DNA from: Clostridia bacterium
Lineage (GTDB): Bacteria > Bacillota > Clostridia > Oscillospirales > CAG-272
Assembly (NCBI GenBank): GCA_017520505.1
Contig: JAFXFN010000006.1
Coordinates: 104,091 to 168,090, forward strand
Direction: 5' to 3'
Length of the DNA: 64,000 bases
Shown one piece after another: positions 17,951 through 62,964 of this stretch (position 1 is the first letter of the stretch; each line of letters opens with the position of its first letter). The position numbers were made by a program, and so were the translations under genes. The notes beneath the pieces were generated by a model. The model searched no databases and had not been told where the DNA came from. It was given only the letters and a program-made list of their open reading frames with translations.

Positions 17951-18193
17951 ATCTCCTTTCAAATGCTCATAAATACAAAAGACTGATACACCTATTTTCC
18001 CAAGCTGAAAAGTGCTCGTCGCAAAAAACAGATGAACCAACAATTTTATATTACAGTATTATTGTATAAAGAAATAGTAATAAATGATAATTTTCCGTAA
18101 ATTCACAAAAGCTGTGCATAGATATAAAACATCATTATTGATAAGCTTGATACCCTGAATTTTCTTTATCTATAATCACAAGTCTGCTTTTAT

Positions 18194-18229
18194 AAAAAAT
18201 CAGGACATCTTTTGATAAAGATGTCCTGA
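18194..18229 (-). terminator. Intrinsic terminator of paralog 2
   Basis: CAGGACATCTTT/AAAGATGTCCTG stem with a 4-nt loop, and a T-run on the minus strand. Confidence 0.65.
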
Positions 18230-18237
18230 CATATTGA

Positions 18238-20352: not shown

Positions 20353-20548
20353 AGTGTTCACTCCTTTTTTAAAAAACACGAACATAAAAGCTTGCAAACT
20401 CAAAAAGCACATCGATAATTAACGGTGCAAGCTGACACTATAATTCTACAGCATTTTATCAAAAAACGCAACTCAAAAATGATAATTTTTTGTTAATTAT
20501 GCAAAAAACACGCTTGTTTTCAAAACAAATACTATTAAAATTACATAA

Positions 20549-20582
20549 GAAAAAATACACCGCAGCAATTTTGCTGCGGTGT
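20549..20582 (-). terminator. Intrinsic terminator of paralog 3
   Basis: ACACCGCAGCAA/TTGCTGCGGTGT stem followed by a T-run on the minus strand. Confidence 0.6.
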
Positions 20583-20594
20583 AAATATTTGATT

Positions 20595-22691
20595 TTAGTC
20601 AATAGGTCTGTAAGCGTAATAGAATGTAGGCTGGTCAGCTGTACCGATCCTTTCAAGGAACGGTGCCTCTTTTCCCTTATAGAACGTCGTTATGTGATTC
20701 GTGTCATACTGTATTCTGTAAACCGAGCCGTGGTCATATCTCAAATATGTGTTTCCGCCCATATTCTCGCTTGCGCATATAAATGCGTGGCCGGGAATTC
20801 CCGGTTTCGTATAGTCATACGTTGTAAATACAAGGTCTCCGGGCTTAAGTGCGGCAGGGTTGGTTATCTTCTGATAACCGAGTGTCGGTATCCAATTGTG
20901 CTGCTCATAAACAACGGGGCCGTGTGATATTTTATTTCCTCTCGTGTTTGTAATACCGGATCTCCAAAGCGCCCAGTCAACAAGTCTGTCACAGCTACTG
21001 AGTCTTTCGGTAGATGCTACAGGTCTGTTTATATCAAGATGCTGCCAGTTATATCCGGGATTATAGCTAGCGTCGCCGTATATAAATCTGTTTGCGGCTG
21101 CAAAGTCGGAAATAAGCTTTGCATTGTAAAGTATCTTTGCCGCCATAAGAGTCGGACAAGGATTATATACAAGGTTTTGTCCCTGATATACGACCTGACC
21201 GAGATACGTAACAGTTGCCGCCTTTGCCGCTTCAAGCGTTTCATATCTGCCGTATACTACGTTATTATAAGGATTTGTTACGGTATATGAAGGAAGCTTG
21301 AGTGCGTAGTCTTCAAATACGAACTGCTGTGCCGGGGTGCCGTTATAGGTATACAAGTGAATATTTACGTCTTCAATATCAGCACCGCTGTACACATCGA
21401 CAGCAAAGCTCTTATCAAGTGCGGAACGGAGTATCGCTTTTCCGTTCTTCATATATACGTACCAATGCTGAGCCTTTGTACCGTTGTAATCATACGTTTG
21501 AATGTTAGTGCTGTTAGCCGCTTTTCCACCTGTCACGTCAAGCGCTTTGCCGTTGAGAGCACTCGTTATTCTGTACGTGCCGTCGCCGTTGGGGTTAAAT
21601 TCCCAATACTGTCTTATAGCCTTCAATGCTACGTTGCCGTTCGACTCTATTGCCATCTGACGGCTTCCAAATGTGAGATTTGCATAGAATTTTGACTGTG
21701 TCAAAGGTCCTGCTTTATCAAAATAATCTTCAGCGTTTGCATCGAAATCATCTATTTTATTGATATAGAACAGCTGTGCATCGGAGTAATTCAAGCCGTA
21801 CATATGAACGTTGGCATCATTTTCAGTTGAGCCTGAAAAGATATCAATAACTCTGTCATCTGCGCACTTTGAGCGAATGAAGTATCCGTCCTCGTGTTCA
21901 ACGAGATACCATCTCTGGTTGTCTGCTTCGTGCGCCTTATAAAGCGAAACATTTGCGCCCTGCTCATCAGATGCGTACGAAACCTCCATAGCTGTACCCA
22001 TACCTACACTTCTGATAACATACGTGCCGTCATCGCGGCGTGTGAAGTGCCATATCTGGTTTGCAGAGGTTGTCTTATCAGATGCAACGACATTGTTTCC
22101 GATATTTGCCGTAATTGCGTTATCGGTGTAAGAAAGGTCTATCGTTGCGTAGAAATCGTCACCGAGATCTGCATTTTTCTTGTCATAAATATTAAACTCG
22201 GGCTCATCCGTCATAATAAGCTCTGAAAATCCCGAAAGATCTGCTTCATTGAATGAGCCGTCACGGTTGAAGTCAAGAACAGATTCGTAATAGAATTTGT
22301 TTCCTGCCTTGAGATGCTTTTTAGCACGTACAAGGTCTTTGCCCGTTACGTACGTATCACCGTCGAGGTCACCCTCAACAAGCAACGTGTATTCAGTTCC
22401 GTTTGCCATTACAAGCTTATAGCCCGTTCCGACTCTCGAACCTGCCGCTATATCATATCCGTGGAATTTAGTGATATGATCGCTTCCCGAAATTTCTTTC
22501 AAAAGCTCCTCAGCAGTTGTTCCGACAGGTATATTTTTTATGTACTGACCGTCAATTACCGCATCGGATATCGACAGCGCCGCATTTTTTGCAAAAAACG
22601 AAGACACTATCTCCGTCCCCGCAAAAACACAGGGCAGTAAAACAGCAAGCAATACACAAAATACCACTGCTTTAAATAAGTTTTTCTTCAT
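20595..22691 (-). CDS. Secreted dockerin / 2x ricin-type lectin / papain-fold hydrolase, paralog 3 (698 aa)
   Basis: Signal peptide MKKNLFKAVVFCVLLAVLLPCVFA (ATG 22691, GGAG 9 nt upstream). DLDGDTYVTGKD and DFNRDGSFNEADL loops. QxW motifs. SSCDRLVDWALW and GIPGHAFICAS. The 3' region is collinear with paralog 2 at nucleotide level. Confidence 0.65.
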   Translation of the reverse strand: MKKNLFKAVVFCVLLAVLLPCVFAGTEIVSSFFAKNAALSISDAVIDGQYIKNIPVGTTAEELLKEISGSDHITKFHGYDIAAGSRVGTGYKLVMANGTEYTLLVEGDLDGDTYVTGKDLVRAKKHLKAGNKFYYESVLDFNRDGSFNEADLSGFSELIMTDEPEFNIYDKKNADLGDDFYATIDLSYTDNAITANIGNNVVASDKTTSANQIWHFTRRDDGTYVIRSVGMGTAMEVSYASDEQGANVSLYKAHEADNQRWYLVEHEDGYFIRSKCADDRVIDIFSGSTENDANVHMYGLNYSDAQLFYINKIDDFDANAEDYFDKAGPLTQSKFYANLTFGSRQMAIESNGNVALKAIRQYWEFNPNGDGTYRITSALNGKALDVTGGKAANSTNIQTYDYNGTKAQHWYVYMKNGKAILRSALDKSFAVDVYSGADIEDVNIHLYTYNGTPAQQFVFEDYALKLPSYTVTNPYNNVVYGRYETLEAAKAATVTYLGQVVYQGQNLVYNPCPTLMAAKILYNAKLISDFAAANRFIYGDASYNPGYNWQHLDINRPVASTERLSSCDRLVDWALWRSGITNTRGNKISHGPVVYEQHNWIPTLGYQKITNPAALKPGDLVFTTYDYTKPGIPGHAFICASENMGGNTYLRYDHGSVYRIQYDTNHITTFYKGKEAPFLERIGTADQPTFYYAYRPID

Positions 22692-22913
22692 AAGCACACT
22701 CCTTCACATTGATAAAAAAAGAAAACCCGTATCGCCGTAAACATATCATATATAATGCATCAAAGGTATCAATGGCACAGCGCACAAGTATATATTTTAA
22801 TTTTACTGTATCATTATCAATAAAGTAATATAGAAATAATAATTTTTTGTTAATATCAACTAATAAAGTGCTGTTTCTCACTTAATAGTTTTTGTGCATA
22901 TTTAATAATACTG

Positions 22914-33373: not shown

Positions 33374-33416
33374 AAAAATCCCAAAGCGCCGCCCCCCTTT
33401 TCAGGGCAAGCGGCGC
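33374..33416 (-). terminator. Probable intrinsic terminator of gpmI
   Basis: GCGCCGC/GCGGCGC stem with a T-rich tail on the minus strand. Confidence 0.45.
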
Positions 33417-33431
33417 ATATATTCGACAAAA

Positions 33432-35009
33432 TTATTTCTTGACCATTATCGGCTTTTCCCACTGTGCGGGAACTTCAAGACCGAAAAGTGTTGCAACTGT
33501 GGGTGCAACATTTGCAAGTCCGAACTCACCCTCTGCGATCTCGTAACCGTCAGCGCCTGTAGCGGCAATGAACGGAACGGGGTTAAGGGAGTGCGCTGTT
33601 CTTACCTGAAGGACACCCTTCTTGTTCTTTTCAAACATTTCGTCTGCATTTCCGTGGTCAGCGGTAACGAGCATTGTAACACCGTTTTCCTCACAAACCT
33701 TCAAAAGTCTTGTAAGGCAAAGGTCAAGTGCGCCCATAGAAACGATAACGGCATCCATATTTCCCGTGTGGCCTACCATATCGCCGTTGGGGAAGTTGCA
33801 ACGGATGAAGTCATACTTACCACTCTTGATAGCGGCAATAACGTCATCTGTAACCTCTGCACACTTCATCCAGGGGCGTTCGTCAAAGGAAACCTTATCG
33901 GAGGGAATTTCCGTGAATGTTTCAAGCTCCTCGCTGAACTTTTCGCTCTTGTTTCCGTTCCAGAAGTACGTTACGTGACCGTATTTCTGTGTTTCGGAAA
34001 CTGCATACTGGCTGATTCCGTTTGCAACAAGAAGCTCGGAAAGCGTGTTCTTTATTTCGGGAGGGCTTACAAGATATCTCTTGGGTATCTTGAGGTCGCC
34101 GTCATATTCAAGCATACCTGCAAAGTTGACATTGGGGCGTACACCTCTGTCAAAGTAGGGGAATTCTTCGTCGTCAAACGCCATTGACATTTCGATAGCA
34201 CGGTCACCTCTGAAGTTGAAAAGGATAACACCGTCGCCGTCCTTCATCTTGCCGACAGCCTCGCCGTTTCTTTCGATAACGAATGCAGGGAGATCCTGGT
34301 CGATCATACCGCTGTTTTCATTTCTGAACGTGTTGATAGCGTCTGTTGCGCTTGCAAAACCTCTTGCATTGCCGTGAACGTGTGTTTCCCAGCCGTTTTT
34401 AACCATATCCCAGTCAGCACGGTATCTGTCCATCGTCACCTTCATACGGCCGCCGCCCGATGCAATTTCAGCATGGAAATCACCGTCGTTGAGCTTCGCC
34501 ATAGCTTCCTCAAGCATATCGACGTAAGTCAGGGCGGATGTTGCGGGAACGTCACGTCCGTCAAGCAGAGCGTGCACCTTTACACTCTTTACTCCGTCAG
34601 CCTTTGCACGTGTTATCATAGCGATAAGGTGGGAAATGTTTGAGTGAACGTTACCGTCGGAAAGAAGACCGATAAAGTGAAGGCTTCCGCTGTCCTTACA
34701 TCCTGCAAGAACCTCAGCCCATGCACTGCTTCCGAATATCTTACCGCTTTCGATAGATTCGTTTACAAGCTTTGCACCCTGAGAATATATCTGACCGCAG
34801 CCGAGAGCGTTGTGTCCTACCTCGCTGTTACCCATATCGTCATCGGAGGGAAGACCTACAGCCTCACCGTGAGCCTTAAGACGTGCTGTGAGCTTTTCTG
34901 CAAGAAGCTTATCAAGCGTGGGAGTGTTTGCAAGTGTTACGGCATCGCCGACACCTGTCTTTGAAAATCCTACGCCGTCCATAATTACAAGCAAAATTTT
35001 CTTATCCAT
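33432..35009 (-). CDS. gpmI: 2,3-bisphosphoglycerate-independent phosphoglycerate mutase
   Basis: 525 aa. Starts LLVIMDGVGFS, then SEVGHNALG, and TADHGN near the C-terminus, all typical of the alkaline-phosphatase-superfamily iPGM. Confidence 0.8.
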   Translation of the reverse strand: MDKKILLVIMDGVGFSKTGVGDAVTLANTPTLDKLLAEKLTARLKAHGEAVGLPSDDDMGNSEVGHNALGCGQIYSQGAKLVNESIESGKIFGSSAWAEVLAGCKDSGSLHFIGLLSDGNVHSNISHLIAMITRAKADGVKSVKVHALLDGRDVPATSALTYVDMLEEAMAKLNDGDFHAEIASGGGRMKVTMDRYRADWDMVKNGWETHVHGNARGFASATDAINTFRNENSGMIDQDLPAFVIERNGEAVGKMKDGDGVILFNFRGDRAIEMSMAFDDEEFPYFDRGVRPNVNFAGMLEYDGDLKIPKRYLVSPPEIKNTLSELLVANGISQYAVSETQKYGHVTYFWNGNKSEKFSEELETFTEIPSDKVSFDERPWMKCAEVTDDVIAAIKSGKYDFIRCNFPNGDMVGHTGNMDAVIVSMGALDLCLTRLLKVCEENGVTMLVTADHGNADEMFEKNKKGVLQVRTAHSLNPVPFIAATGADGYEIAEGEFGLANVAPTVATLFGLEVPAQWEKPIMVKK

Positions 35010-35908: not shown

Positions 35909-38446
35909 ATGAAATTTGAGCATATAATCTCAACCGTTAAGCAAAGCGGCTACGACGGGGTACCGGGTTACGGTATATTGAGCAAAAGCCGAAACCTCCC
36001 GCACAGCGATTTTAAGGAATACACCTGCTCGCCCGGACGTATAAAGCGTGATGTTTACTCTTACGAATACAGAAACAAAACAGCGGTATTCACCAAAAGA
36101 ACACCGAAAAACGATGTCTATTTATCCGACGGGGTTCATACCGACAACAGTATAACTCATACCGTTCTGTGTAAAAAAGAGTCTGAGGCACTTCCTTGCG
36201 AATACATTGCCTCTCCCTCATTTATAAGCAACGTCACACAGGACAGCGTCACATTCGACAGCGGAACTGATTATCTTGACGAAACGGAATTCTTCCCGTC
36301 GGGGGCGGTATCTGTCAACAGAGTTATGAACTTCCTCGGCACGCAAGGACGTGTTGAAGCATATAAAAAACTGCTTTATGCGGTTTTAAAGGCTGACGAC
36401 AAGGAAAAGCCCATCGTTATCTGTGACACGGACGAAAATATCCCTCTTTGGATAGGGGCTGTATCTTATTCTCTGCCCCGTCACATTGCCGTAAAGCTCA
36501 GCTTCACAACATCTGTTCTGCCTTACAGCGGCGCACCGTTTTACAGACTGTGCGGAATCTGCGCTGACGACATAAACGAAAGCGTTGCAGATTACATAAG
36601 GGAAAATTCATTTTGTCTGTTTGATATGATACACCTCGATCTTCCCGATTATCCCGTGACAGATCCGATATTCGGCTTTTTCGCCGATGCTATGACACAT
36701 TCTTATGCAGACATTGCCGCATTCCACGATTTTGTCGCAAGCTCGTTTTATACAATATCGGAAGCGCAGCTTACAAATGCGTATGCGGCATACAACGTTG
36801 TACGAAAAGGCATTGCAAACGTGTCTTACCGTGAGTTTGCAACAGCGGCGCACGCCGTCAGCAACTTCGGATTTGACTCTGCGTTTATACAGATCGCCGA
36901 ATCCTGCCTTTCCTCGGGAAGTGCGGTATGCGAATATGACGAGGCATATATTGCCGCAATTCTTCTCTTTATATGCGGACGTGATGAAATTCTTTCATAT
37001 AAGCTGAAATCGTCGCTCCGTGAATTCATCTGCCGTGTTTCACTCGCTGTCATCTGCACAAAGGAAAACGGCGGTGAAAAATTGAATGCATACTACGAAA
37101 AGGCAAGTGTCTGCGCTGAAAGCGTCGGTATATGTCTTTCGGAAAAGCTTCTGTCGGACAAATACAGAAAGCACATCATAAACACACTTTCTGCAAGCAC
37201 CCCCGACTATAAGGCACAGCTCGTTTCAAAAATGTATAAAGAATATCTCAAAGCCAAGGGATTTGGCTGTGATGATATAACATCAGGCTCGGAATCCGGT
37301 TCTTTCGCAGCAGAATATATAAAGGCATCCTCACAACACTGCGAGAGCTGCTCTGTATTTATGCTGAACGAAACCGCATACGATCCGCTTGTGCTTTGTG
37401 CGGTGTATCTTGTGATAGAGGAAGCGCTCGGAGAAAACGAAAAGCAGGTATCGCTTGCTAAGAACACACTTATCGCACTTGCTTCAAAGTCAGACCGCAC
37501 AGCGGAAATATGCGACTTCCTTGTAAAAGCAGACCACGATGAGCTTACCTATGAAATATTCAAAACGAAGCTTGCATCATTCAGAGATCATACAGAGGCT
37601 GTTACGGCATTTGACGAGCACGACAAAAAATATTTCTCCTCCTCCGAGGAATACGAATCACGTTATCTTGTTTCCGCACTTGAAATTTTGACAGAAACAG
37701 CACGTGAAAACTTCCCCGACGATCTTGAAAAAACAGATGAATACATCCTGCGTGTTGCCTGCAAGCACCGTGTTTGCATAAAATACAGTGATGAAATATG
37801 CAAGGAGCTTGCAGATTCCATCCCCGTTGAGCCTGACAAGAAGGAATCCGAGCTTTTACAGCTCATTTCCGTTTACGTTCAAAGCGTGTGCTGTAAGCCG
37901 CTTGACGGCAGATTGCTCTGTCTGTGCTTTGCAAAACAGCTCGACGGAATTGAAGATAAGCGTGATTTTGACAAGGCTGTGCCGACTCTTGACAAATATA
38001 CATCATCACGCAAGGTTCCCTTGAATTCGCTTGACAAAAAGGAATATGACGATTATATGGATTGGATAATACCGAATCTTGCATCGTTCCTTCCCGAATA
38101 CGAGGATCTTTGTGCCGTTTACTCTTACTTTGAGTTCAATACCGATACAGAGGAGCTTTACATAAAAGAGCTTATCAAGTCCTACATCAAGGAAAGCAAG
38201 AGTGACGGAGATTACAGAAGACTTTGCGGATTTTTACGCTTCGTTATTACCGAATGTACGGAAACAGGCAAGCGCTCCGCTGGTGCGCAGGTCACAAAGC
38301 TGAACGCAAAGAATATGGATTCGCTGAAAGCATGCGGTGAGGACGTGTTCGGAGACGATAACACGATGTATCTCAAATTCAGAGACATACTTGACACAGA
38401 ACCCGAAAAGGGCTCAATATTCAAAAAATTATTCGGCAGAAAATAA
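35909..38446 (+). CDS. Large cytoplasmic protein of unknown function (845 aa)
   Basis: Long ORF with an AAAGGGG RBS. I found no signal peptide, TM helix, Walker A or other recognisable catalytic motif. It is mostly helical-looking and Cys-rich in places. Confidence 0.6.
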   Translation: MKFEHIISTVKQSGYDGVPGYGILSKSRNLPHSDFKEYTCSPGRIKRDVYSYEYRNKTAVFTKRTPKNDVYLSDGVHTDNSITHTVLCKKESEALPCEYIASPSFISNVTQDSVTFDSGTDYLDETEFFPSGAVSVNRVMNFLGTQGRVEAYKKLLYAVLKADDKEKPIVICDTDENIPLWIGAVSYSLPRHIAVKLSFTTSVLPYSGAPFYRLCGICADDINESVADYIRENSFCLFDMIHLDLPDYPVTDPIFGFFADAMTHSYADIAAFHDFVASSFYTISEAQLTNAYAAYNVVRKGIANVSYREFATAAHAVSNFGFDSAFIQIAESCLSSGSAVCEYDEAYIAAILLFICGRDEILSYKLKSSLREFICRVSLAVICTKENGGEKLNAYYEKASVCAESVGICLSEKLLSDKYRKHIINTLSASTPDYKAQLVSKMYKEYLKAKGFGCDDITSGSESGSFAAEYIKASSQHCESCSVFMLNETAYDPLVLCAVYLVIEEALGENEKQVSLAKNTLIALASKSDRTAEICDFLVKADHDELTYEIFKTKLASFRDHTEAVTAFDEHDKKYFSSSEEYESRYLVSALEILTETARENFPDDLEKTDEYILRVACKHRVCIKYSDEICKELADSIPVEPDKKESELLQLISVYVQSVCCKPLDGRLLCLCFAKQLDGIEDKRDFDKAVPTLDKYTSSRKVPLNSLDKKEYDDYMDWIIPNLASFLPEYEDLCAVYSYFEFNTDTEELYIKELIKSYIKESKSDGDYRRLCGFLRFVITECTETGKRSAGAQVTKLNAKNMDSLKACGEDVFGDDNTMYLKFRDILDTEPEKGSIFKKLFGRK

Positions 38447-38473
38447 GCCGATCACATACGAAAGGATACTGTT

Positions 38474-39790
38474 ATGGGTTTAAAGGTTGTAAAATTCGGC
38501 GGTTCATCATTGGCAAGCGCCGAGCAGTTCCGCAAGGTTGCGGATATAATAAAGAGTGATGAAAACAGACGTTACGTTGTGGCATCTGCCCCCGGTAAGC
38601 GTTTCAAGGGCGACTTCAAAATAACTGATATGTTCTATCTTATCTACGACAGAGTTGCCGCAGGTGATAACATCGACACGCTTTTTGAAGAAATTACAGG
38701 CAGATACCAGGAGATCGCTGACGGTCTCGGCATTGAAATTTCAATGGAGGCTGAATTCAGCCGTATCAAAAACGCTCTTTACGGTATGGCAGGAAGAGAC
38801 TATGCCGCATCAAGAGGTGAATACCTCAATTCAATGCTTCTGGCAAAATATATGGGCTACGATTTCATCGATGCCGCTGAGGTTATCTTCTTCAAGCAGG
38901 ACGGAACATTTGATGCAGAAAGAACAAACACGGTTTTGGCTGAAAGACTGAAAAGACATCCGTATGCTGTCGTTCCCGGCTTTTACGGTTCAATGCCCAA
39001 CGGAACTATCAAGACGTTCTCACGCGGCGGCTCGGATATAACGGGCTCTATTCTTGCACGTGCGGCAAACGCAGAGCTTTACGAAAACTGGACAGACGTT
39101 TCGGGCTTCCTTATGGCTGACCCCAGAGTGGTTGACGATCCCAAGGTTATCGAAACAATAACCTACAGAGAGCTTCGTGAGCTTTCATATATGGGTGCAA
39201 CAGTTCTTCACGAGGATGCGATATTCCCCGTACAGATAGCGGGTATTCCGATAAACATCAAGAACACTAACATTCCCGAGGATCCCGGTACTATGATCGT
39301 ATCTACAAGCGACAAGTACGACACAAAGACGATAATCACGGGTATTGCAGGTAAAAAAGGCTTCTCCGCAATTCACATCGAAAAGGATATGATGAACGGC
39401 GAGGTAGGCTTTACAAGAAAGATACTTTCCGAGCTTGAGGAAAGAAACATATCCTTTGAGCATCTGCCGTCGGGTATCGACACAATGACGATAATGCTCA
39501 AAACAGAGGATATTGCAAAAATAAGAGAGGATCTTATAGTAGATATAAGACACTCCGTGCATCCCGACAGCATCTACATTCAGGACGGTATTGCGCTTAT
39601 CGCCGTTGTCGGCCGTGCTATGGTCAAGGCAAAGGGTACTGCCGCAAAGCTGTTTTCCGCTATTGCAAAGGCTGACATCAACGTAAAGATGATAGACCAG
39701 GGCTCCGACGAGCTTAATATCATTCTCGGTATCGAGGAAGCAGACTTTGAAAAGGCTATGTCAGCGATCTATCACGAATTTGTAGGCTGA
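38474..39790 (+). CDS. Aspartate kinase
   Basis: VVKFGGSSLAS N-terminal kinase motif, about 440 aa, with C-terminal ACT-like repeats (IALIAVVG...INVKMIDQGSDELNI). Confidence 0.8.
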   Translation: MGLKVVKFGGSSLASAEQFRKVADIIKSDENRRYVVASAPGKRFKGDFKITDMFYLIYDRVAAGDNIDTLFEEITGRYQEIADGLGIEISMEAEFSRIKNALYGMAGRDYAASRGEYLNSMLLAKYMGYDFIDAAEVIFFKQDGTFDAERTNTVLAERLKRHPYAVVPGFYGSMPNGTIKTFSRGGSDITGSILARAANAELYENWTDVSGFLMADPRVVDDPKVIETITYRELRELSYMGATVLHEDAIFPVQIAGIPINIKNTNIPEDPGTMIVSTSDKYDTKTIITGIAGKKGFSAIHIEKDMMNGEVGFTRKILSELEERNISFEHLPSGIDTMTIMLKTEDIAKIREDLIVDIRHSVHPDSIYIQDGIALIAVVGRAMVKAKGTAAKLFSAIAKADINVKMIDQGSDELNIILGIEEADFEKAMSAIYHEFVG

Positions 39791-39806
39791 ACCGAAGGAC
39801 AGGACA

Positions 39807-40625
39807 ATGTATAAAATTTTCGATATTCACACGCATATTTATCCCGATGCAATTTCGGAAAGGGCTGTGACGGCTCTCGGTAATTTCTACGATTTTGTAC
39901 CGCAGGGCAAGGGCTGTTATTCCGATATGACAGCGCACGACAAAAATTATAACATTTCGGGATTTCTCGTTTTTTCCGTGGCAACGAATGCGCACCAGGT
40001 GCGCCGTGTGAATGAGTTTCTCTCCGCAACCTGTAACAAGGCAATAAGCGAGGGCTTCAAAACGGTTGCCTTTGGCGGTCTTCATCAGGACTGCGAGGAT
40101 ATGAAGGGGGAAATAGACTATGCGCTGTCGCTCGGTCTTAAAGGTATCAAAATACACCCCGATATACAGGGCATCGACGTTGACGATAAAAGGCTTTATC
40201 CGCTTTATGAGGAGGCAGAGGGTAAGTTCCCGATATACTTCCACATAGGCGACAACCGCCCGCAGTATCAGTTTTCAAAGCCGAAAAAGCTCCGTAAGAT
40301 ACTTGATGAATTTCCCCGTCTTCAGGTCGTTGCCGCACATCTCGGCGGTTATATGACCTCTGAGGAGGGCGTTGAATATTTAAGCGGTCACGAAAACGTG
40401 TGGTATGATACCTCGTCAGCACTTTGGGCAATGTCGCCCGAAAAGGCGGAATATCTTATCGGCAAATTCGGAGCTGAAAAGGTGATGTTCGGCACGGACT
40501 ATCCCGTTATGTGTCCGCACGACGAGCTTGAGCTTTTCTTCAAAATAAAGCTCACCGAAAAGCAAAGAGAAGATATTTTATATAACAACGCAATTAATTT
40601 TCTTAATTTAAAAGCAGACGGTTGA
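39807..40625 (+). CDS. Amidohydrolase-2 family metal-dependent TIM-barrel hydrolase
   Basis: Starts IFDIHTHIYPD (HxH metal site), then AHLGG and FGTDYP, as in PF04909-type amidohydrolases. Confidence 0.6.
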   Translation: MYKIFDIHTHIYPDAISERAVTALGNFYDFVPQGKGCYSDMTAHDKNYNISGFLVFSVATNAHQVRRVNEFLSATCNKAISEGFKTVAFGGLHQDCEDMKGEIDYALSLGLKGIKIHPDIQGIDVDDKRLYPLYEEAEGKFPIYFHIGDNRPQYQFSKPKKLRKILDEFPRLQVVAAHLGGYMTSEEGVEYLSGHENVWYDTSSALWAMSPEKAEYLIGKFGAEKVMFGTDYPVMCPHDELELFFKIKLTEKQREDILYNNAINFLNLKADG

Positions 40626-40640
40626 CCCGTCTGCTTTTTT
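40614..40640 (+). terminator. Intrinsic terminator overlapping the amidohydrolase stop codon
   Basis: GCAGACGG/CCGTCTGC stem followed by TTTTTT. Confidence 0.7.
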
Positions 40641-40649
40641 CGTTATAAT
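40622..40649 (+). promoter_or_regulatory. Candidate promoter (TTGACC-16 nt-TATAAT) that would drive structured element A
   Basis: TTGACC at 40622-40627 (inside the terminator hairpin) and TATAAT at 40644-40649. No ORF follows. Confidence 0.4.
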
Positions 40650-40672
40650 TCATAATTTTCCTTATAAAAAAT

Positions 40673-40755
40673 ATTTCCGCAGGAAATATCTGTGCCCATC
40701 TCCAATCAGTTGACTTCGTCAACTGCGGGGGGCGGGGCGCAGCAACTGTAAGAGA
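40673..40755 (+). ncRNA. Structured intergenic element, copy A (candidate sRNA; a bidirectional terminator follows at 40766-40803)
   Basis: Hairpin ATTTCC-GCA-GGAAAT. Outer stem CTGTGCCC/GGGCGCAG encloses an 8-bp hairpin with a 3-nt loop (CAGTTGAC-TTC-GTCAACTG), then a GGGGGG run, then TGTAAGAGA. The architecture matches copy B at 44832-44919, but the paired bases differ. Confidence 0.45.
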
Positions 40756-40765
40756 AAGTTTACAT

Positions 40766-40803
40766 AAAAAATAGAGTTGACATACTATCAACTCTATTTT
40801 TAT
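40766..40803. terminator. Bidirectional intrinsic terminator (phosphohexomutase gene and candidate sRNA A)
   Basis: ATAGAGTTGA/TCAACTCTAT stem flanked by an A-run and a T-run. Confidence 0.65.
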
Positions 40804-40842
40804 TTTCAATTAACCGCACACACCACAAATCAAAGAATGGTA

Positions 40843-42573
40843 TTATTTTATACTGTCTATTATTGCAAGGCCTGCTTCTTTAAATTTTGCAACCTTTGCG
40901 TCTGCGCCCTCTGCCGTTTTCTCACTTACAAGGTAGTAGAGCTTTATTTTAGGCTCTGTGCCCGACGGACGGATAACAACAACGTCGTCGCCACATTTGA
41001 AATAAACGGTGTTTGTCGTGCCTGTATCGAGCATCGTCTTCTCGCCCGTTTTCAGATTGTATTCACACGGAATATTGTAGTCGATGACTGTGTCAACGGC
41101 AACGCCTGCCAATTCCTTCGGCGGTTCTTCACGAAGCTTTTTCATTATGCGCTTCATACGGTCGATACCGTCAAGGCCTTTCATAGTTATATTATCAACG
41201 CCGTCACGGTAGAAGCCGTATTTGTTGTATATTTCCTGCATTGCATCGTAAAGCGTCATTCCGCGCTTCTTGTAATACGCCGCAACCTCACAAATGAGCA
41301 TAGTGCCGACAACAGCATCCTTATCACGTGCGTAAGTGCCTCTTAAATATCCGTAGCTTTCCTCAAATCCGAGCAAGAATTCCGCCTCACCTGGCTTTTC
41401 CTCACGCTTTATGACCTCGCCGATGTACTTGAAGCCCGTGAAAACATTGTAAAGCTTGACACCGTTGACAGCGGCAATTTTTGACACAAGCTCCGTTGAA
41501 ACAAAGCTCTTGACAGCATACGCACCGTTCGGCATCTTGCCTGTGTTTTTAAGCGCCGTAATAATGTATTCAAGAAGAATAGCACCGACCTGATTTCCCG
41601 TCATAGTAACGAAATCGTCACCGACTCTTACAGCGATACCGACACGGTCAGCATCAGGGTCCGTTGCAATAATAAGGTCAGAGCCTATTTCCTTTGCAAG
41701 CTTTATGCCGGGGTTGAAAACGTCCTTGAATTCCGGATTCGGAAAAGGAGTGGTCGGGAAGTTTCCGTCAGGCTCGCTCTGCTCTTTTACCATATAGAGA
41801 TTTTTAAATCCGAGCATATCGATAACTCTCGGAACGAGCTTATAGCCTGCGCCGTGCAAGGGAGTGTAAACGATCTTGATGTCGTCCGCCATTTCCTTTA
41901 TCATTTCTGTGTCTATCGCCTGCGCGTACACATTTTCAAGATATGCCGCATCGACTTCTTCGCCGATGATCTTGATAAGACCGCTTTTGATTCCGTCTTC
42001 AAACGGAATGGATGAAACACCGTCAAAAATATCGGTAACTGCAATTATGTCGGATACCTTCTGGGCGTGCTCCGGCGGAAGCTGTGCGCCGTCCTCCCAA
42101 TATGCCTTGTATCCGTTATATTCCTTGGGGTTATGCGATGCCGTGATGTTGATACCCGCAATGCAGTTCAAATGACGGATAGCAAACGAAAGCACGGGTG
42201 TGGGGCGGAGAGATTCAAAAATAAACACCTTGATGCCGTTTGCCGCAAGCACCTCTGCGGCACATTTTGAAAACAGCTCGGAGTTATTTCTTGAGTCGCA
42301 AGCAATTGCAACTCCTCTTTCCATAGCCGCCTTGCCTTCTTCTTTTATAAGTGTGGCAATAGCCTGTGTTGCCTGTGTTACCGTGTATACATTCATCGCA
42401 TTCGTGCCGGCGTTCATCGTTCCTCTGAGTCCTGCCGTACCAAACTGAAGTGACTGATAGAAACGAAGCTTTATTTCCTCGTCATTATCCTTTATTGCAA
42501 TAAGCTCCGCTTTTGTGGCTTCATCCGTTTTGTCGGAGGTAAGCCAACGGTTATAATTTTCCATATATCCCAT
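40843..42573 (-). CDS. Phosphoglucomutase/phosphomannomutase family (alpha-D-phosphohexomutase)
   Basis: Active-site loop TASHNPKEYNGYK, Mg loop DPDADR, 576 aa. Confidence 0.85.
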   Translation of the reverse strand: MGYMENYNRWLTSDKTDEATKAELIAIKDNDEEIKLRFYQSLQFGTAGLRGTMNAGTNAMNVYTVTQATQAIATLIKEEGKAAMERGVAIACDSRNNSELFSKCAAEVLAANGIKVFIFESLRPTPVLSFAIRHLNCIAGINITASHNPKEYNGYKAYWEDGAQLPPEHAQKVSDIIAVTDIFDGVSSIPFEDGIKSGLIKIIGEEVDAAYLENVYAQAIDTEMIKEMADDIKIVYTPLHGAGYKLVPRVIDMLGFKNLYMVKEQSEPDGNFPTTPFPNPEFKDVFNPGIKLAKEIGSDLIIATDPDADRVGIAVRVGDDFVTMTGNQVGAILLEYIITALKNTGKMPNGAYAVKSFVSTELVSKIAAVNGVKLYNVFTGFKYIGEVIKREEKPGEAEFLLGFEESYGYLRGTYARDKDAVVGTMLICEVAAYYKKRGMTLYDAMQEIYNKYGFYRDGVDNITMKGLDGIDRMKRIMKKLREEPPKELAGVAVDTVIDYNIPCEYNLKTGEKTMLDTGTTNTVYFKCGDDVVVIRPSGTEPKIKLYYLVSEKTAEGADAKVAKFKEAGLAIIDSIK

Positions 42574-42585
42574 TTCAAAGCCCTC

Positions 42586-42840
42586 TCATTCTTTATTCAA
42601 CGCTTGTTTCAAAGCCTTTGCAAGCTGATCGGGACAAGATGTGTTTTTAAATCCGCACTTCGTTCCCTCAAGAAGACCTATGACGTCCTGCGCATTCATA
42701 CCGACAACGAGCTTCGATATTCCTTTAAGGTTGCCGTCGCATCCGCCGTAAAACTTTACGGACACGATAGTGTCGCCGTCAAGCTCTGTTTCTATCATTG
42801 AAGAACACGTGCCTCTTGTCTTGTACTTATAATTACTCAT
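42586..42840 (-). CDS. TSCPD-domain small protein (TIGR03905-like)
   Basis: 84 aa, with GGCDGNLKG and TSCPDQLA motifs. Confidence 0.7.
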   Translation of the reverse strand: MSNYKYKTRGTCSSMIETELDGDTIVSVKFYGGCDGNLKGISKLVVGMNAQDVIGLLEGTKCGFKNTSCPDQLAKALKQALNKE

Positions 42841-42921
42841 CCGATACCTCGCAAAATACTTTTCTTTCTACATTATAAGTCAAAAAACAAAATTTGTCAA
42901 CCGTTTTATAAAGGAGGTTAG

Positions 42922-43821
42922 TTATCTCGGTATTTTTATGGTAAGCTCAATGGAATCATCCGTTTCAACTCTTGATTGCTCAATGGGAATTCCTGCTTCC
43001 TTTACGGTGCTTACTGCCCTGTCAAGCGAATTTAAAAATATTCTTATATCCCTTATTATCATTTTTCTCACGGGCTTGTGTACGGGAACACTTGGGAAAA
43101 GTATCTTTTTTATATATTCCTCGCTTTCACGTACGTTAAGAGAATGTTCTATAATATATCCCAACGTTTTAAGCCTTAAAACGGGATCGTGTATTTTTAT
43201 AAGACTTCGTGCGTGGCGTTCGGACAGATCGTTTTTTATTATCAGCTCTCGTTCAGGCTCGCTCAGACGCAAAAGCCTTATTTTATTTGCCACGTACGAT
43301 TGGCTGACGGAAAGAAGGGCTGCGATCTCCTCTTGTTTAAGCGAATATTTTTCGGCAAGAGATAAAATTGCAGAGGCTTCCTCGAATATATTAAGTCCCT
43401 CACGCTGTAGATTTTCCACAAGCGCAAGCTTTGCCGAGGCTTCCTTGTCAACGTCGAGTATCACACACGGCACGTATTCCATATTGAGAAGCTTTGCCGC
43501 ACGAAGACGTCTTTCCCCTGCAATCACCTCGTAAAGACCGCCGAACGGTGTGTCCTCATCGGAAACACGTCGGATGGAAATAGGCTGAATTATGCCGTGC
43601 CTTTTTATGCTGTCGGCAAGACTCATTATAGAGGAATCGGAAAAAACTGTCCTCGGCTGTGACGGATTCGGGCATATTCTGTCGGGATTTATCAGATGTA
43701 CCCTGCACGCATCCTCTGCGTTTTTAAGCTGTTTTTTTCGCTTGTTGAGCTTGTCCCATTCGTTTTTAAGTTTTTCTTTTTCGTCGTTCTTTTTAAAATC
43801 AAACCTCTGCAAAAGCTTCAT
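42922..43821 (-). CDS. ParB/Spo0J/Noc-family DNA-binding protein (orphan; no ParA gene alongside)
   Basis: ParB box ICPNPSQPR, GERRLRAAKL and an HTH region. ATG 43821 (MKLLQRFDFKK) is 6 nt from GGAGG and is preferred over 43827. Confidence 0.75.
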   Translation of the reverse strand: MKLLQRFDFKKNDEKEKLKNEWDKLNKRKKQLKNAEDACRVHLINPDRICPNPSQPRTVFSDSSIMSLADSIKRHGIIQPISIRRVSDEDTPFGGLYEVIAGERRLRAAKLLNMEYVPCVILDVDKEASAKLALVENLQREGLNIFEEASAILSLAEKYSLKQEEIAALLSVSQSYVANKIRLLRLSEPERELIIKNDLSERHARSLIKIHDPVLRLKTLGYIIEHSLNVRESEEYIKKILFPSVPVHKPVRKMIIRDIRIFLNSLDRAVSTVKEAGIPIEQSRVETDDSIELTIKIPR

Positions 43822-43971
43822 ACGCATCCTCCTTTGGCAATCCTATATTACCACAGGGTGTATGCGAAAAAACGCATATTATGAGTGGGTAGATAAAAAA
43901 GTTTATACATTCTTTATAAAAACCGAATTAATTACGCTTTATTTGCATTTATTATAATAATCGAGGTGAAT

Positions 43972-44766
43972 ATGATGAAAAATAAAAAAGAGCGTATTAT
44001 AAACATAATAACGGTCATTTTTGCCGTGTTTATACTTTTAAACTATTCGGTTTATCTTTTTTGCACCGTGTCAAACGGAGGAAAAACTTGGAACGCACTC
44101 GTCGCTGTCGGTATTATTATGATTACTCTGATTCCGCTTGTTCTGCTTTTTCTTTTCGAAAAAGAGATTCCGAGAAAATATAAAAAACTGATAAAGGTGC
44201 TGAAAACCGTTTACATAATCGGTATGGGGGTGTACGTTTTAAGCTATTCCGTTTTTGCCGTATGGGTAACGTCGGGTGTAAGTTACAGCACAGAGAAGGA
44301 CTACAACTGCGTTATCGTTTTCGGCGGCGGTGTTAAAGACGGTAAGCTTTCACGCTACGGTGAAAACCGACTGAATGCAATAATACCGTATCTTGAAGAA
44401 CACGAAAACACAGCGGTTATCGTTTCGGGCGGTGTCGGCGAGCACGAGACCTTCTCCGAGGCTGACGTTATGGCGGAATATTTTATGCAACACGGCATAT
44501 CGGGCGAACGTATCATACTTGAAGATCAAGCCAAAAACACGTGGGAGAATATCGAATATTCATTTGATATTATAGGCAAAAAAAATACCGCCCTCGGCAT
44601 TTCGAGCGACTACCACGTAAAGCGTATAGAGCTTATGGCGAAAGAACAGAACGTAGACCTTGATATGATAGCATCAAAAAGCGAGCTTGAGCTTAATACA
44701 ATATCGTCCTACGTCCGTGAATATATGGCATATTTTAAATATTTTTTGGGACTTAATGATATATGA
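43972..44766 (+). CDS. DUF218 (YdcF/SanA/ElyC-like) membrane-associated protein
   Basis: Three N-terminal TM helices, then CVIVFGGGV....., IVSGG and SSDYHVKR, typical of DUF218. The start may be ATG 43975 (better SD spacing). Confidence 0.6.
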   Translation: MMKNKKERIINIITVIFAVFILLNYSVYLFCTVSNGGKTWNALVAVGIIMITLIPLVLLFLFEKEIPRKYKKLIKVLKTVYIIGMGVYVLSYSVFAVWVTSGVSYSTEKDYNCVIVFGGGVKDGKLSRYGENRLNAIIPYLEEHENTAVIVSGGVGEHETFSEADVMAEYFMQHGISGERIILEDQAKNTWENIEYSFDIIGKKNTALGISSDYHVKRIELMAKEQNVDLDMIASKSELELNTISSYVREYMAYFKYFLGLNDI

Positions 44767-44831
44767 ATACAGCCACAACTCAATCCATCACCCTTTATAA
44801 CCTTGTTTCGCTTGTGAAAGCTAACAAATAG

Positions 44832-44919
44832 ATTTCCAAAGGAAATCTGCGCCCTACGCCCGTGGACGGCAGGCTATGCCTGCCGAGGGGGGACGGGCAG
44901 GGCGCCGTTATTGTAAAGA
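44832..44919 (+). ncRNA. Structured intergenic element, copy B (candidate 3'-UTR or sRNA element)
   Basis: Hairpin ATTTCC-AAA-GGAAAT. Outer stems GCGCCCT/AGGGCGC and GCCCGT/ACGGGC enclose an 8-bp hairpin with a 3-nt loop (CGGCAGGC-TAT-GCCTGCCG), then GGGGGG, then TGTAAAGA. Same layout as copy A. Confidence 0.45.
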
Positions 44920-44950
44920 TTCAGGTAAAACAAGATACTACTGCACAAAT

Positions 44951-44993
44951 AAAAAACGAACGCCCGAAGCTTCCTCCGTATGAAGCTTCGGGC
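44951..44993 (-). terminator. Intrinsic terminator of infB (a T-run is also present on the plus strand)
   Basis: GCCCGAAGCTTC/GAAGCTTCGGGC 12-bp stem followed by TTTTTT on the minus strand. Confidence 0.7.
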
Positions 44994-45018
44994 AATTTTT
45001 AACCGTAATTAAAGGCTT

Positions 45019-47721
45019 TTATCTTTTTACTTCTTCCATTATATACGCTTCGAGTATATCACCTTCGCGTATATCGTTGAACTTTTCAAGTCCGACACCG
45101 CATTCGTATCCTGTTGCGACCTCACGCACGTCATCCTTGAAACGGCGAAGTGATGATATCTTATCCTCAAATATGATGACGCCGTCACGTACGACACGGA
45201 TGAGCGATGCACGTGTGATCTTACCGTCCTGAACGTAAGAACCTGCGATAGTACCGACGTTGGGAACGTGGATGGTCTGACGTACTTCAGCGTGACCAAG
45301 AACAACTTCCTTGTATGTGGGAGCAAGCATACCCTTCATAGCAGCCGTTATCTCCTCGATACATTCATAGATGATTCTGTATGTTCTGATATCAACGCCC
45401 TCACGCTCAGCGGAATCCATTGCCGCCTTATCGGGACGAACGTTAAAGCCGATGATGATGGCATTTGATGCCGCCGCAAGCATAACGTCACCCTCTCTGA
45501 TACCGCCAGCGGCAGAGTGGATAACATTGACCTTGACTTCGTCATTAGTAAGCTTGAGAAGTGAAGCGGAAACTGCCTCAGCAGAGCCTGCAACGTCAGC
45601 CTTAATGATAACGTTGAGGTGTTTAACATCATCGCTGATATTTGCAAACATTTCTTCAAGCGAGCCACGGGATTTAGCCTTGAATTCCTGTTCCTTTTCC
45701 TTTTCCCTACGCTGTTCGGCAAGCTCACGTGCCATTCTTTCGTCTTCAACTGCGTTGAATTCATCACCTGCTGTGGGAACAGCGGAAAGACCAGTGATCT
45801 CAACGGGAACTGACGGGCCTGCAACCTTTACGTTCTTGCCGAGTGAGTCTGTCATAGCACGGACACGGCCGACACAAGTACCTGCAATAACAACGTCACC
45901 GCTGTGAAGCGTACCGTTCTGAACGAGGACTGTTGCAACGGGACCTCTGCCCTTGTCAAGTCTTGACTCGATGATAACGCCCTTTGCGTGGCGGTCGGGA
46001 TTTGCTTTAAGCTCCTTCATTTCGGCAACCAAAAGCACCATTTCAAGCAGGTTGTCAATGCCGTAGCCTGTAAGTGCGGAAACGGGCACAACTATCGTGT
46101 CACCGCCCCATTCCTCGGGCATAAGGTCGTACTTTGTAAGCTCCTGCTTAACAGCATCGGGATTAGCGTGCTGTTTATCCATTTTGTTAATTGCAACGAT
46201 GACTGAAATATCAGCCGCCTTTGCGTGGTTTATAGCCTCTATCGTCTGGGGCATTATACCGTCATCAGCCGCAACGACGAGAATTGCAATATCCGTTGAT
46301 TTAGCACCTCTTGCACGCATAGCTGTAAACGCTTCGTGTCCGGGTGTATCAAGGAACGTTATATCTTTACCGTTTATAGATACTCTGTAAGCACCGATAT
46401 GCTGTGTGATACCGCCTGCTTCTCCGCTTGTAACGTGTGTATTTCTTATCTTGTCAAGAAGCGACGTTTTACCGTGGTCAACGTGACCCATTACGCATAC
46501 AACGGGAGGTCTTTCAACGAGATCCTCTTCTTTATCCTCTGTATCTGTAAACAGCTTTTCTTCAATAGTTACAACGACTTCCTTCGTAACCACAGCACCC
46601 ATTTCCTCTGCAACGAGGTATGCTGTGTCAAAGTCGATAACGTCATTGACCGTTACCATAGCACCCATGCCGATAAGCTTTTTGATAACGTCAGCAGACG
46701 TTGCCTTGAGTCTTTGAGCGAGGTCAGAAACGACTATTTCATCGGGAACAGTAATGTGAAGCGGCTGTTTCTTAGCCTTTTCAAACTGCTCACGGCGGAG
46801 CTTTTCCATAGCAAACTTTTCTTTATCACGGTTCTTTGCGCTTCTGTCGCCCTGATTCTTCTTTTTCAGCTTCTGCTTCTGATTGTGAGCGTCGCCGTAG
46901 CTTCCCTTTGAATCGGAAACGAAGTTTTCAAGTCTTTCGTCGTACTTGTCAAGATCGACCGTTACAGTTCTTGTATCAATTACTCTTGTGCCCGTTTTTA
47001 CGTTTGAATTTGATGCGTGTGTATTTTCACCTGTGCCCGATGTGCGGATAACACCTGCTCTTGTATCCTGCGCAGGCGCCTGCGGCTTTTTCTTTTCTGC
47101 AGGCTTATTGTTCTGCTGAGGCTGTGAGGGTCTGTTCTGGAACTTGTCAAGCTGTGACATACGGGGCTGCTTAGGCTGTTGGGGAGCATTGTTCTTTGCA
47201 GGAGCCTGCTGATTTTTGTTCTGCTTATCGAAGGGCTTTTCTTCCTTTTTAGCCTGAGTCTTTTCGGGCTTTGCAGGTGCACTTTCGGGCTTCTTCTCCT
47301 GAGGCTTTGCCTTTTCTTCCTTTTTCTCTTCAACCTTTTCGGACTTCTTTTCTGCCTTTACAGGCTCGCTCTTAACAGGCTTTTCTTCCTTTGCTGCTGC
47401 GGGCTTTTCTTCTTTCTTAGGCTCTGCCTTGGGTTCTTCCTTAGGTGCTTCTGCCTTCTTTTCAGCTTTTGCGGGAGCCTTCTTTTTGGGACGGTCAGCC
47501 TCTGCCACATCCGCTTCTCCTGCAAGATATGCGGAAAGATTTGTTATCTGATTCTGCTTTGTCAAAAGCTCCATTATAACAGAAAACTCTTCCGGTTCAA
47601 GCACCGTCATATGAGTTCTGCCGTCAAAGCCGTTATCCTTCAAAAGATTGATAATGTCAGTGCTTTTCATATTGAGATCTTTTGCAAGTGCGCTGATTCT
47701 GTATTTTTGATTTGCTATCAT
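45019..47721 (-). CDS. infB: Translation initiation factor IF-2
   Basis: Lys/Glu/Pro/Ala-rich N-terminal region, GTPase motifs [13 protein letters not shown] and NKMD, 900 aa, downstream of nusA-ylxR-ylxQ. Confidence 0.95.
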
Positions 47722-47789
47722 ACAATAACCTTTAAAGCTTGCGTTACGGACCGCATGCTTTTCCTTTCATTACGGTTAAAATGTTATTC

Positions 47790-48128
47790 TTAATTAAAAT
47801 ATTTCAAAATTGCATCTGCCAGGTTCATATCGGTTATACCGACAACTGACACAGCAGTTCCCTTGCCGACGATATTTCCAAGCTCCTCACAGGTTATGGG
47901 AGCCTTAACAAGCGGAACCTCGTAGTAATTACAGCTGTTTTCTATCCTGCTTTTTGTGTTTTTCGATGCATCAGAGGCGCAAACCGCAACAAGCGGTGTT
48001 TTTCTTCCGCCCGAGCGTATACCGTCAACCGTCAGCGCCGAGCCTACTGTGATCCTGCCCGACTTTTTGGCAAATCCGATATAAGCGGTCAGCTTTTTTG
48101 CCGCCTCTGTACTGTTGTCTTTTTTCAT
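47790..48128 (-). CDS. ylxQ: L7Ae-family RNA-binding protein (YlxQ-like)
   Basis: 112 aa, GFAKKSGRITVGS motif, in the conserved position between ylxR and infB. Confidence 0.7.
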   Translation of the reverse strand: MKKDNSTEAAKKLTAYIGFAKKSGRITVGSALTVDGIRSGGRKTPLVAVCASDASKNTKSRIENSCNYYEVPLVKAPITCEELGNIVGKGTAVSVVGITDMNLADAILKYFN

Positions 48129-62877: not shown

Positions 62878-62964
62878 GCCGGTGTGATGGAATTGGCAGA
62901 CGTGCTGGACTCAAAATCCAGTGGTAGCGATACCGTGCGGGTTCGACCCCCGCCACCGGCACCA
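62878..62964 (+). tRNA. tRNA-Leu (anticodon CAA) with encoded CCA
   Basis: Manual cloverleaf: acceptor stem GCCGGTG/CACCGGC, D-loop AATTGGCAGA, anticodon stem-loop CTGGA-CTCAAAA-TCCAG, long variable arm GGTA-GCGA-TACC, T arm GCGGG-TTCGACC-CCCGC, A73 and CCA. Confidence 0.95.

Follow-up and report, generated by a model that had tools for sequence, protein, structure and literature searches.

A multi-copy family of structured intergenic repeats in uncultured ruminant-gut Clostridia, with two copies in one 64-kb stretch

The hairpins of repetitive extragenic palindromic (REP) sequences have beside them the tetranucleotide GTAG, which is needed by the REP-associated tyrosine transposases (RAYTs), and the REPIN-RAYT systems described so far are, to our knowledge, mainly proteobacterial. 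In the Firmicutes, small RNA (sRNA) families such as LhrC, csRNA and RsaE/RoxS comprise 2-7 copies, and every copy has a regulated promoter and a terminator to itself. REP and REPIN elements are mobilised by RAYT transposases (Bertels & Rainey 2011, PMC3116915, PMC3337134). The spacers of REPINs are unique in sequence, yet the hairpin is always kept, which provides a precedent for covariation without an RNA gene (PMC3337134). The present analysis concerns two intergenic loci, copy A and copy B, in a stretch of 64,000 nucleotides (the window) of a Clostridia bacterium (assembly GCA_017520505.1, contig JAFXFN010000006.1, positions 104,091 to 168,090 of the forward strand). An earlier note, made from the letters of the stretch, had taken copy A for a novel sRNA gene with a second locus of the same layout. 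We lean towards the reading that both loci are copies of a previously undescribed non-autonomous DNA element, similar to REP/REPIN elements or to miniature inverted-repeat transposable elements (MITEs).

Copies A and B, both read on the + strand, have one layout in common: a P1 hairpin, a GC-rich outer stem (P2), an inner stem (P2b), a hypervariable tip (P3) and an unpaired run of six G residues (G6). The gap that holds copy A is convergent, between the amidohydrolase and phosphohexomutase genes, as is that of copy B, between the gene for a DUF218 protein and infB, which encodes initiation factor IF-2. In the numbering of the window the parts are as follows.

40671-40742, + strand: copy A core, a short 'type 2' form without terminal inverted repeats, consisting of P1, P2, residual inner pairing, P3 and G6
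40671-40689, + strand: copy A P1, ATATTTCC-GCA-GGAAATAT, 8 bp
40690-40697, + strand: copy A P2, 5' arm, CTGTGCCC; the T at 40693 is a C in related strains
40707-40725, + strand: copy A P3, CAGTTGAC-TTC-GTCAACTG
40727-40732, + strand: copy A G6 run
40735-40742, + strand: copy A P2, 3' arm, GGGCGCAG; P2 includes one U.G pair
40747-40755, + strand: copy A 'tail', TGTAAGAGA
44797-44831, + strand: copy B left terminal inverted repeat, degenerate (nhmmer E = 3.8e-4), pairing with 44911-44941 in the fold
44830-44905, + strand: copy B core, a long 'type 1' form
44830-44848, + strand: copy B P1, AGATTTCC-AAA-GGAAATCT
44849-44855 and 44899-44905, + strand: copy B P2, GCGCCCT pairing with AGGGCGC
44858-44863 and 44893-44898, + strand: copy B P2b, an extra helix, GCCCGT pairing with ACGGGC
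44867-44885, + strand: copy B P3, CGGCAGGC-TAT-GCCTGCCG
44887-44892, + strand: copy B G6 run
44911-44941, + strand: copy B right terminal inverted repeat, TTGTAAAGATTCAGGTAAAACAAGATACTAC (nhmmer E = 2.8e-5; fold of 44795-44943)

Inspection of the sequence confirmed that all pieces described in the earlier note are present. Some details had to be adjusted. The P1 hairpin of copy A exists as claimed, with a stem of 8 bp instead of 6 bp. The assignment of the inner hairpins had been worded such that it could be read as swapped; CAGTTGAC is from copy A, CGGCAGGC from copy B. Copies A and B do agree in the stem and loop length of P3, but the family as a whole does not, as P3 ranges from absent to about 58 nt, the longest one (in locus L005, in the numbering of related loci introduced below) carrying nested palindromes. 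The tail TGTAAGAGA of copy A is similar to the beginning of the right terminal inverted repeat in the long forms (TGTAAAGATTCAG) and may be a remnant of it.

Both copies stand out from their surroundings. Compared with shuffled sequences their folds reach z = -4.95 for copy A (-38 kcal/mol) and z = -4.87 for copy B. The P1 pattern has two exact matches in the window against a chance expectation of 0.31 (allowing at most one mismatch), and the + strand of the 64 kb holds just two G6 runs, one inside each element. A covariance model, R1, built from 11 copies and run over the window with filters off, gave two strong sites, copy B at 90.6 bits (E = 1e-18) and copy A at 53.7 bits (E = 3e-10).

The family was traced outside the window by a pattern scan of one genome per species (185,579 species; query ATTTCCNNNGGAAATN{0,2}CTGYGCCC), which returned 42 loci. 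Thirteen of these are chance matches in unrelated phyla. The remaining 29 loci, with 30 copies, come from seven related metagenome-assembled genomes (MAGs) labelled Eubacteriales or Acutalibacteraceae bacterium, the sources of which were yak, sheep, cattle and faecal samples; in four MAGs there are 6-7 pattern matches each. Every real match continues with P2, P2b, P3, the G-run and the closing arms. The loci were fetched at 8 kb each, about 330 kb in total, and are referred to here by number (L004 and so on). In them R1 recovers the pattern-found copies at 30-94 bits and adds five copies. A metagenome scan contributed eight extra copies, all in one assembly, which brings the total to about 45 copies across seven related MAGs and one metagenome. 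The density is roughly one copy per 40 kb, with two in the 64-kb window.

When positions 38000-48000 of the window were compared by BLAST with all loci, the element was the sole similarity outside the orthologous locus L014. The window region is 90% identical to L014 (MAG SGB_6645), which implies that the genome of the window belongs to the same clade. The family is vertically confined to a narrow clade of uncultured ruminant-gut Clostridia and is intergenic; a lineage-restricted, multi-copy, intergenic distribution is also what characterizes REP/REPIN elements. With Rfam 15 at gathering thresholds the sole match in the whole window was a tRNA at 62878-62961. A permissive scan of 40550-45100 gave chance-level matches (E at least 0.64), none of them on the + strand over either core, in agreement with the earlier statement that the structure was not recognized as a known Rfam family. 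Being absent from Rfam and from phage and plasmid collections, and found only in uncultured MAGs, the family is very probably undescribed, whereas the kind of element it represents, a structured intergenic repeat, is already well known. A match to a known repeat family had been named beforehand as an adverse finding; the loci do belong to a repeat family, albeit one that had not been described.

The bare core of the element spans 50-120 bp; where terminal inverted repeats are present the length is about 150-220 bp. The parts of the element are conserved in two different ways. P1 is formed by ATTTCC/GGAAAT in 39/40 copies and has a variable loop. Of the five copies missed by the P1-anchored pattern because of a divergent P2, four retain this stem, so that its invariance is not only a matter of ascertainment. 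The G-run is G6 in 27/38 copies and G5-G7 in 37/38. The other parts preserve pairing only: P2 occurs in 15 arm variants, P2b in about 20 arm pairs, each of them complementary, and the P3 base in 24 variants. In the model alignment of 40 copies 98.1% of the cells pair, and 12/22 pairs show double changes (71 cells). None of 500 shuffles reached the observed pairing, and the covariation score was 0.224 as against at most 0.027 for slid partners. The fold is therefore conserved with compensatory changes, and the idea of a selected RNA or DNA structure, put forward in the earlier note for the two copies, holds for the aligned family. Palindromic DNA repeats leave the same covariation signature, however, which means that covariation alone is no proof of an RNA gene. 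Nearly every stem change leads from one Watson-Crick pair to another. In P3 there are 54 double changes from one Watson-Crick pair to another and zero one-sided G.U changes. This is as expected from template switching or module replacement in a DNA palindrome and is less typical of gradual RNA covariation. The P3 type of copy A was also found in the unrelated copies L028, L034:298 and L054, which have differing P1 and P2 types; copies have thus evidently exchanged parts. The G-run is placed in the terminal loop in L012, L036, L042, L047 and L057, all of them short forms.

Terminal inverted repeats of about 30 nt (5' consensus GTAGTACCTTGTTTCAyTTAAAAsTTTACAAATAG; 3' TGTAAA..TGAAACAAGGTACTAC), the ends of which pair as an outer stem, adjoin roughly a dozen of the approximately 45 copies, several with one end only. 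In all loci and the window the inverted-repeat profile matches next to cores only. Two inverted units that form one hairpin are seen in the long forms, including copy B, and not in copy A or the other short forms. Related MAGs also contain two further GTAG-starting REP-like families, GTAGGGG-N3-GGCGYCCTCGAC-N3-CCC and GTAGGGCGGGGGCTTGCTCCCGCCGTA (L004, L014:105(-), L017, L019 with three copies, L025, L026, L034 and L038; L004:4281/4355, L041:1377 and L045:174). Neither occurs in the 64-kb window, and in the related MAGs they are often found directly next to the inverted-repeat ends of the element. The P3 tips of several copies (L005:1777-1892, L007:3842-3937, L017:4588-4684, L019:2462-2559) have a small palindrome in common, GTAGTTCG-loop-CGAACTAC, which is also present inside other hairpins (L004, upstream of 344) and has the look of a minute module nested in hairpin loops. 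Two other explanations of the conserved parts were rejected. For a G-quadruplex the G tracts of the 3' half would have to be free, but they pair with the C tracts of P2 and P2b and no four free G3 tracts are left. Coding was dismissed as well: a 68-aa open reading frame (ORF) at 40603-40809 on the - strand runs over copy A, but the family has indels of lengths not divisible by three, and its P3 varies from 0 to 58 nt.

At the DNA level the copies are not static. The flanks of L042 and L057 are about 95% identical and enclose the same short-form element in inverted orientation, as a segment of about 85 nt between TGATAT and TGATAA. This flip (L042:6470-6760 versus L057:1950-2250) could be an in-place inversion or the outcome of independent insertions at one site. 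A second orthologous site also has the element in both orientations: downstream of one shared gene L037:7475 has a long-P3 copy on the + strand and L015:5742 a P1-less copy with inverted repeats on the - strand; the L007 copy is at the site corresponding to that of L037, behind the same upstream terminator hairpin. Truncated copies occur: L025 and L039 end after P2, and L051 is devoid of P3 and the G-run. Locus L011 had been considered as an orthologue of copy B with a compensatory pair, but its flanking genes are non-orthologous and it is a paralogous copy instead.

Copy A itself exists in three alleles among strains with an identical amidohydrolase protein. In the commonest allele, CTGCGCCC...ATCGCC...GGGGGG-TGG-CGGGGCGC, P2b (CGCCA/TGGCG) is intact. 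The allele of L061 and L063 has a single extra G in place of GTG and is without TG. In the window allele P2b is abolished by two substitutions, C>T at 40693 and G>T at 40701, combined with the loss of 3 nt after 40730, and L065-L067 share this allele as far as the contigs extend. These three independent Logan contigs (L065, L066 and L067) all break inside the G-run of copy A, the repeat thus breaking short-read assemblies.

Two signals around copy A, neither of which is part of the repeat, had been included in the proposed gene.

40622-40649, + strand: promoter-like TTGACC-16-TATAAT, 11/12, 21 nt upstream of copy A
40767-40801, either strand: bidirectional terminator-like hairpin of the convergent phosphohexomutase gene, 25 nt downstream of copy A

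The near-consensus promoter of the earlier note is present as a pattern; it belongs to the local context outside the repeat, its -35 hexamer falls within the terminator hairpin of the amidohydrolase gene, and a terminator-like hairpin lies at 40610-40638, upstream of copy A. The intrinsic terminator is likewise there as a hairpin, which is bidirectional and shared with the phosphohexomutase gene. The signals were counted for 32 non-redundant copies, accepting promoter-like sites at most 80 nt upstream and terminator-like hairpins up to about 150 nt away. Promoter-like sites were found for 3/32 copies on the + strand and 5/32 for the minus strand, copy B having neither. Terminator-like hairpins accompany 7, 6, 7 and 7 of the 32 copies in the four combinations of side and strand (7/32 for the 3' side on the same strand); with counts so even in a symmetric scan, an insertion preference just after terminators was dropped. 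Relative to the upstream gene a crude count gave 19 copies in the same and 8 in the opposite orientation, or about 15 and 7-8 after orthologous duplicates and spurious ORFs had been removed by hand. A replication-strand bias was also discarded, as local GC skew divided the copies 17 versus 19. With promoters and terminators so scarce and the orientation trend so weak, neither signal belongs to the family itself, and orientation is not strongly constrained.

These counts bear directly on the RNA readings. That copy A encodes a trans-acting + strand sRNA of about 150 nt, which would start from the 40622-40649 promoter, end in the 40767-40801 terminator and have copy B as its paralogue, seems improbable to us. 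The 11/12 sigma-70-like site and the terminator-like hairpin on either side of copy A would suit such a gene, as would the co-varying helices, the absence of coding potential with length changes that are not multiples of three, and the conserved unpaired G-rich motif, which is Shine-Dalgarno-like. A repeat beside a promoter can, moreover, be exapted, as is suggested for Coxiella MITEs (PMC5896051). The body of the presumed gene, however, belongs to a dispersed repeat with about 45 copies, and copy B and 29/32 copies are without a promoter-like site. In L014, the closest other species, the hexamers are degraded to TTAACC and TTTAAT. The promoter scan is noisy in this AT-rich region (23 sites versus 8.7 expected), both signals that copy A could call its own are terminators of the flanking genes, and the window allele of copy A has lost P2b. 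Tens of copies per genome are also far beyond the known sRNA multigene families. A discrete sRNA gene composed of promoter, body and terminator was therefore not upheld, and for copy A an sRNA would need the exaptation of a fortuitous promoter. Firmicutes sRNAs use C-rich motifs to pair with Shine-Dalgarno sequences, and a structured RNA from the minus strand would expose an unpaired CCCCCC; its end would be formed by the P1 hairpin and a U-rich tract, or else by the bidirectional terminator next to it. The minus strand folds about as well as the plus strand (mean difference 0.4 kcal/mol; z = -6.2 for the minus strand of copy B), at copy B the minus-strand P1 together with the CTATTTGT behind it scores as terminator-like, and the commonest internal mismatch of the + strand is A.C (7 cases), which is G.U on the minus strand. 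This reading nevertheless appears very improbable, in view of the 5/32 copies with a promoter-like site and of the G.U pairs, which number 37 on the + strand versus 7, many of them from one conserved position. The objections from copy number and orientation flips apply to it in the same way as to the + strand sRNA.

A domesticated cis-acting element, retained at each site for its use to the host irrespective of how it arose, is a better candidate, although still a rather unlikely one. It could be a very stable RNA in 3' or 5' untranslated regions (UTRs) that blocks exonucleases or modulates read-through between convergent genes, or a DNA site for a dimeric protein at the P1 palindrome, and the E. 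coli REP/BIME elements offer a parallel for both versions. Copies persist at one intergenic site in different species with diverged flanks, with little or no change in the core even where flank identity is down to about 75% or the flanks are unalignable; high core identity between species is, however, equally explained by recent spread or gene conversion. Most copies are positioned at gene ends, and L020, L037:3738 and L045 occupy 5' leaders, immediately ahead of a Shine-Dalgarno sequence with its start codon. The folds are very stable (-30 to -70 kcal/mol) and the P1 stem does not covary, suggesting sequence-specific recognition. Against a role in cis speak the orientation relative to the upstream gene, which is only about 15 to 7-8, the lack of orientation bias with respect to terminators or GC skew, the flipping of the element at orthologous sites and the decay of copy A in the window strain.

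The reading towards which we lean, that of an interspersed palindromic repeat, takes all these features together: the family is multi-copy, its helices are compensatory, a subset has inverted repeats, orientation differs at orthologous sites, and some copies are truncated or decaying. In this proposal the element would spread, or would formerly have spread, within genomes by means of a factor encoded elsewhere. The factor would bind the element as a single-stranded fold-back and would recognize the invariant P1 (ATTTCC-N3-GGAAAT) and the unpaired G6, while P2, P2b and P3 would only need to pair. Such a demand for pairing alone would explain why these parts covary freely and why P3 grows, shrinks and is swapped. 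As to the enzyme, our guess would be a HUH/Y1 transposase of the RAYT/IS200 type. RNA produced by read-through or from the fortuitous promoter of copy A would be a by-product, which might by its very stable fold incidentally protect 3' ends. The GTAG...CTAC outer ends and the adjoining GTAG-hairpin repeats hint at a RAYT-like enzyme. A more specific version, which we regard as unlikely, is that the family forms the non-autonomous half of an undescribed REPIN-like system of Clostridia, in which a single-copy, trans-acting, hairpin-binding enzyme copies or flips the element, or else that G6 and P1 mark an RNA or DNA signal recruited by the host at tens of gene ends. The enzyme of this REPIN-like scenario might be a HUH/Y1 transposase or another hairpin-binding recombinase, and the tip could then evolve without constraint or take up small palindromes as nested insertions.

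Several searches for what a mobile element should leave behind gave results that weigh against an interspersed mobile repeat. All-versus-all BLAST of the 454 ORFs of the loci yielded orthologous groups only and no recurrent neighbour protein. Pfam searches of 117 neighbouring ORFs pointed to housekeeping functions in the 25 most frequent of 105 families, with no recurrent transposase, reverse transcriptase or TnpB. A parent or autonomous element with the same inverted repeats was not present in the approximately 330 kb of loci and the window. The pattern scan of viral contigs gave two chance matches to P1 alone (19.9 bits) and no copy of the element, and plasmids and phages gave no BLAST match to it. 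No flanking direct repeat was consistently above shuffles as a target-site duplication; the cases that look like one are TGATAT/TGATAA in L042 and L057, and ATAAAAA at copy A, which was equalled in 145/200 shuffles. A clean empty site for either window copy was not encountered among the loci compared: in L014 synteny with the copy B locus breaks directly after the DUF218 stop codon, and six near-identical strains all have an identical copy B. Furthermore, copies are retained at the same site across species as flanks diverge (copy A in L014 and L059; L008/L021/L028; L007/L015/L037), which would fit a host function too. That the asymmetric G6 and the sequence of P1 are so strictly conserved shows selection, which could be for an RNA function.

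For annotation the outcome is that both loci are better entered as interspersed-repeat copies than as paired novel sRNA genes. The clear split between parts of fixed sequence (P1, G6) and parts that need only pair (P2, P2b, P3) gives a good handle on the recognizing protein; together with the orientation flips it is mildly unusual. Little is charted of such systems in gut Clostridia, and the family offers a way to follow the spreading and flipping of palindromic repeats there; the breaks that it induces in short-read assemblies are of practical relevance to MAG quality.

The window holds a few further features of interest. One of them may be a P1-less relative of the element or a plain terminator, and its membership of the family is doubtful.

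33386-33435, - strand: hairpin GCGCCGC-TTGCCCTGAAAAGGGGGG-CGGCGC followed by a T-rich tail (R1 17.1 bits, E = 0.057)

This hairpin is situated between the iPGM and chromate-transporter genes and holds the third G6 run of the window in its loop region. On the - strand at 15905-22697 are three tandem paralogous genes for proteins of about 700 aa with ricin-B lectin domains, one of which also has a dockerin; the combination suggests a cellulosome-bearing, Ruminococcus-like organism. An ORF of 2069 aa at 4826-11035 (- strand) is without any Pfam match. At 35909-38446 (+ strand) an 845-aa protein, with a GAP1-M domain (GTPase-associated protein 1) as its sole match, adjoins aspartate kinase.

In comparison with known systems, integron attC sites and retrons can be set aside. 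Like attC, which acts as a single-stranded fold-back, the element conserves structure over sequence and has a variable apical part. It lacks the R''/R' boxes (RYYYAAC...GTTRRRY), however, its ends being AGATTTCC... and ...GGGCGC, and its copies stand isolated between housekeeping genes, without cassette arrays and with no integrase nearby. A retron msr-msd was rejected since the element is multi-copy and the neighbours in the window are the amidohydrolase, the phosphohexomutase, the DUF218 protein and IF-2, with no reverse transcriptase. With the LhrC, csRNA and RsaE/RoxS families it has in common several paralogous copies, hairpins with a conserved unpaired homopolymer-like motif and an intergenic position, but here there are tens of copies, mostly without promoter or terminator and with orientation flips.

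Bacterial MITEs come closer. Correia elements, RUP and the Coxiella MITEs (PMC5896051) resemble the family in being ORF-less and dispersed between genes, at 50-220 bp and with inverted repeats in a subset; further points of likeness are the stable RNA fold upon transcription and the possible exaptation into sRNAs or UTR elements. The family differs from MITEs in that no target-site duplication was detected and no parent insertion sequence with matching ends was found in the loci, many copies are without inverted repeats, and the strand-asymmetric G6 is conserved. The differences from REP/REPIN elements are of another kind: the interior (P1, P2 and G6) is the most conserved part here instead of the ends, it also occurs alone, as in copy A, and the ends are not themselves palindromes. 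In other respects the family is like REP/REPIN elements, being short, non-coding, intergenic, multi-copy and lineage-confined. Its long form is an inverted doublet of ends of about 30 nt that makes one long hairpin, with a variable interior that is always a hairpin, and many of the outer ends of this form read GTAG...CTAC.

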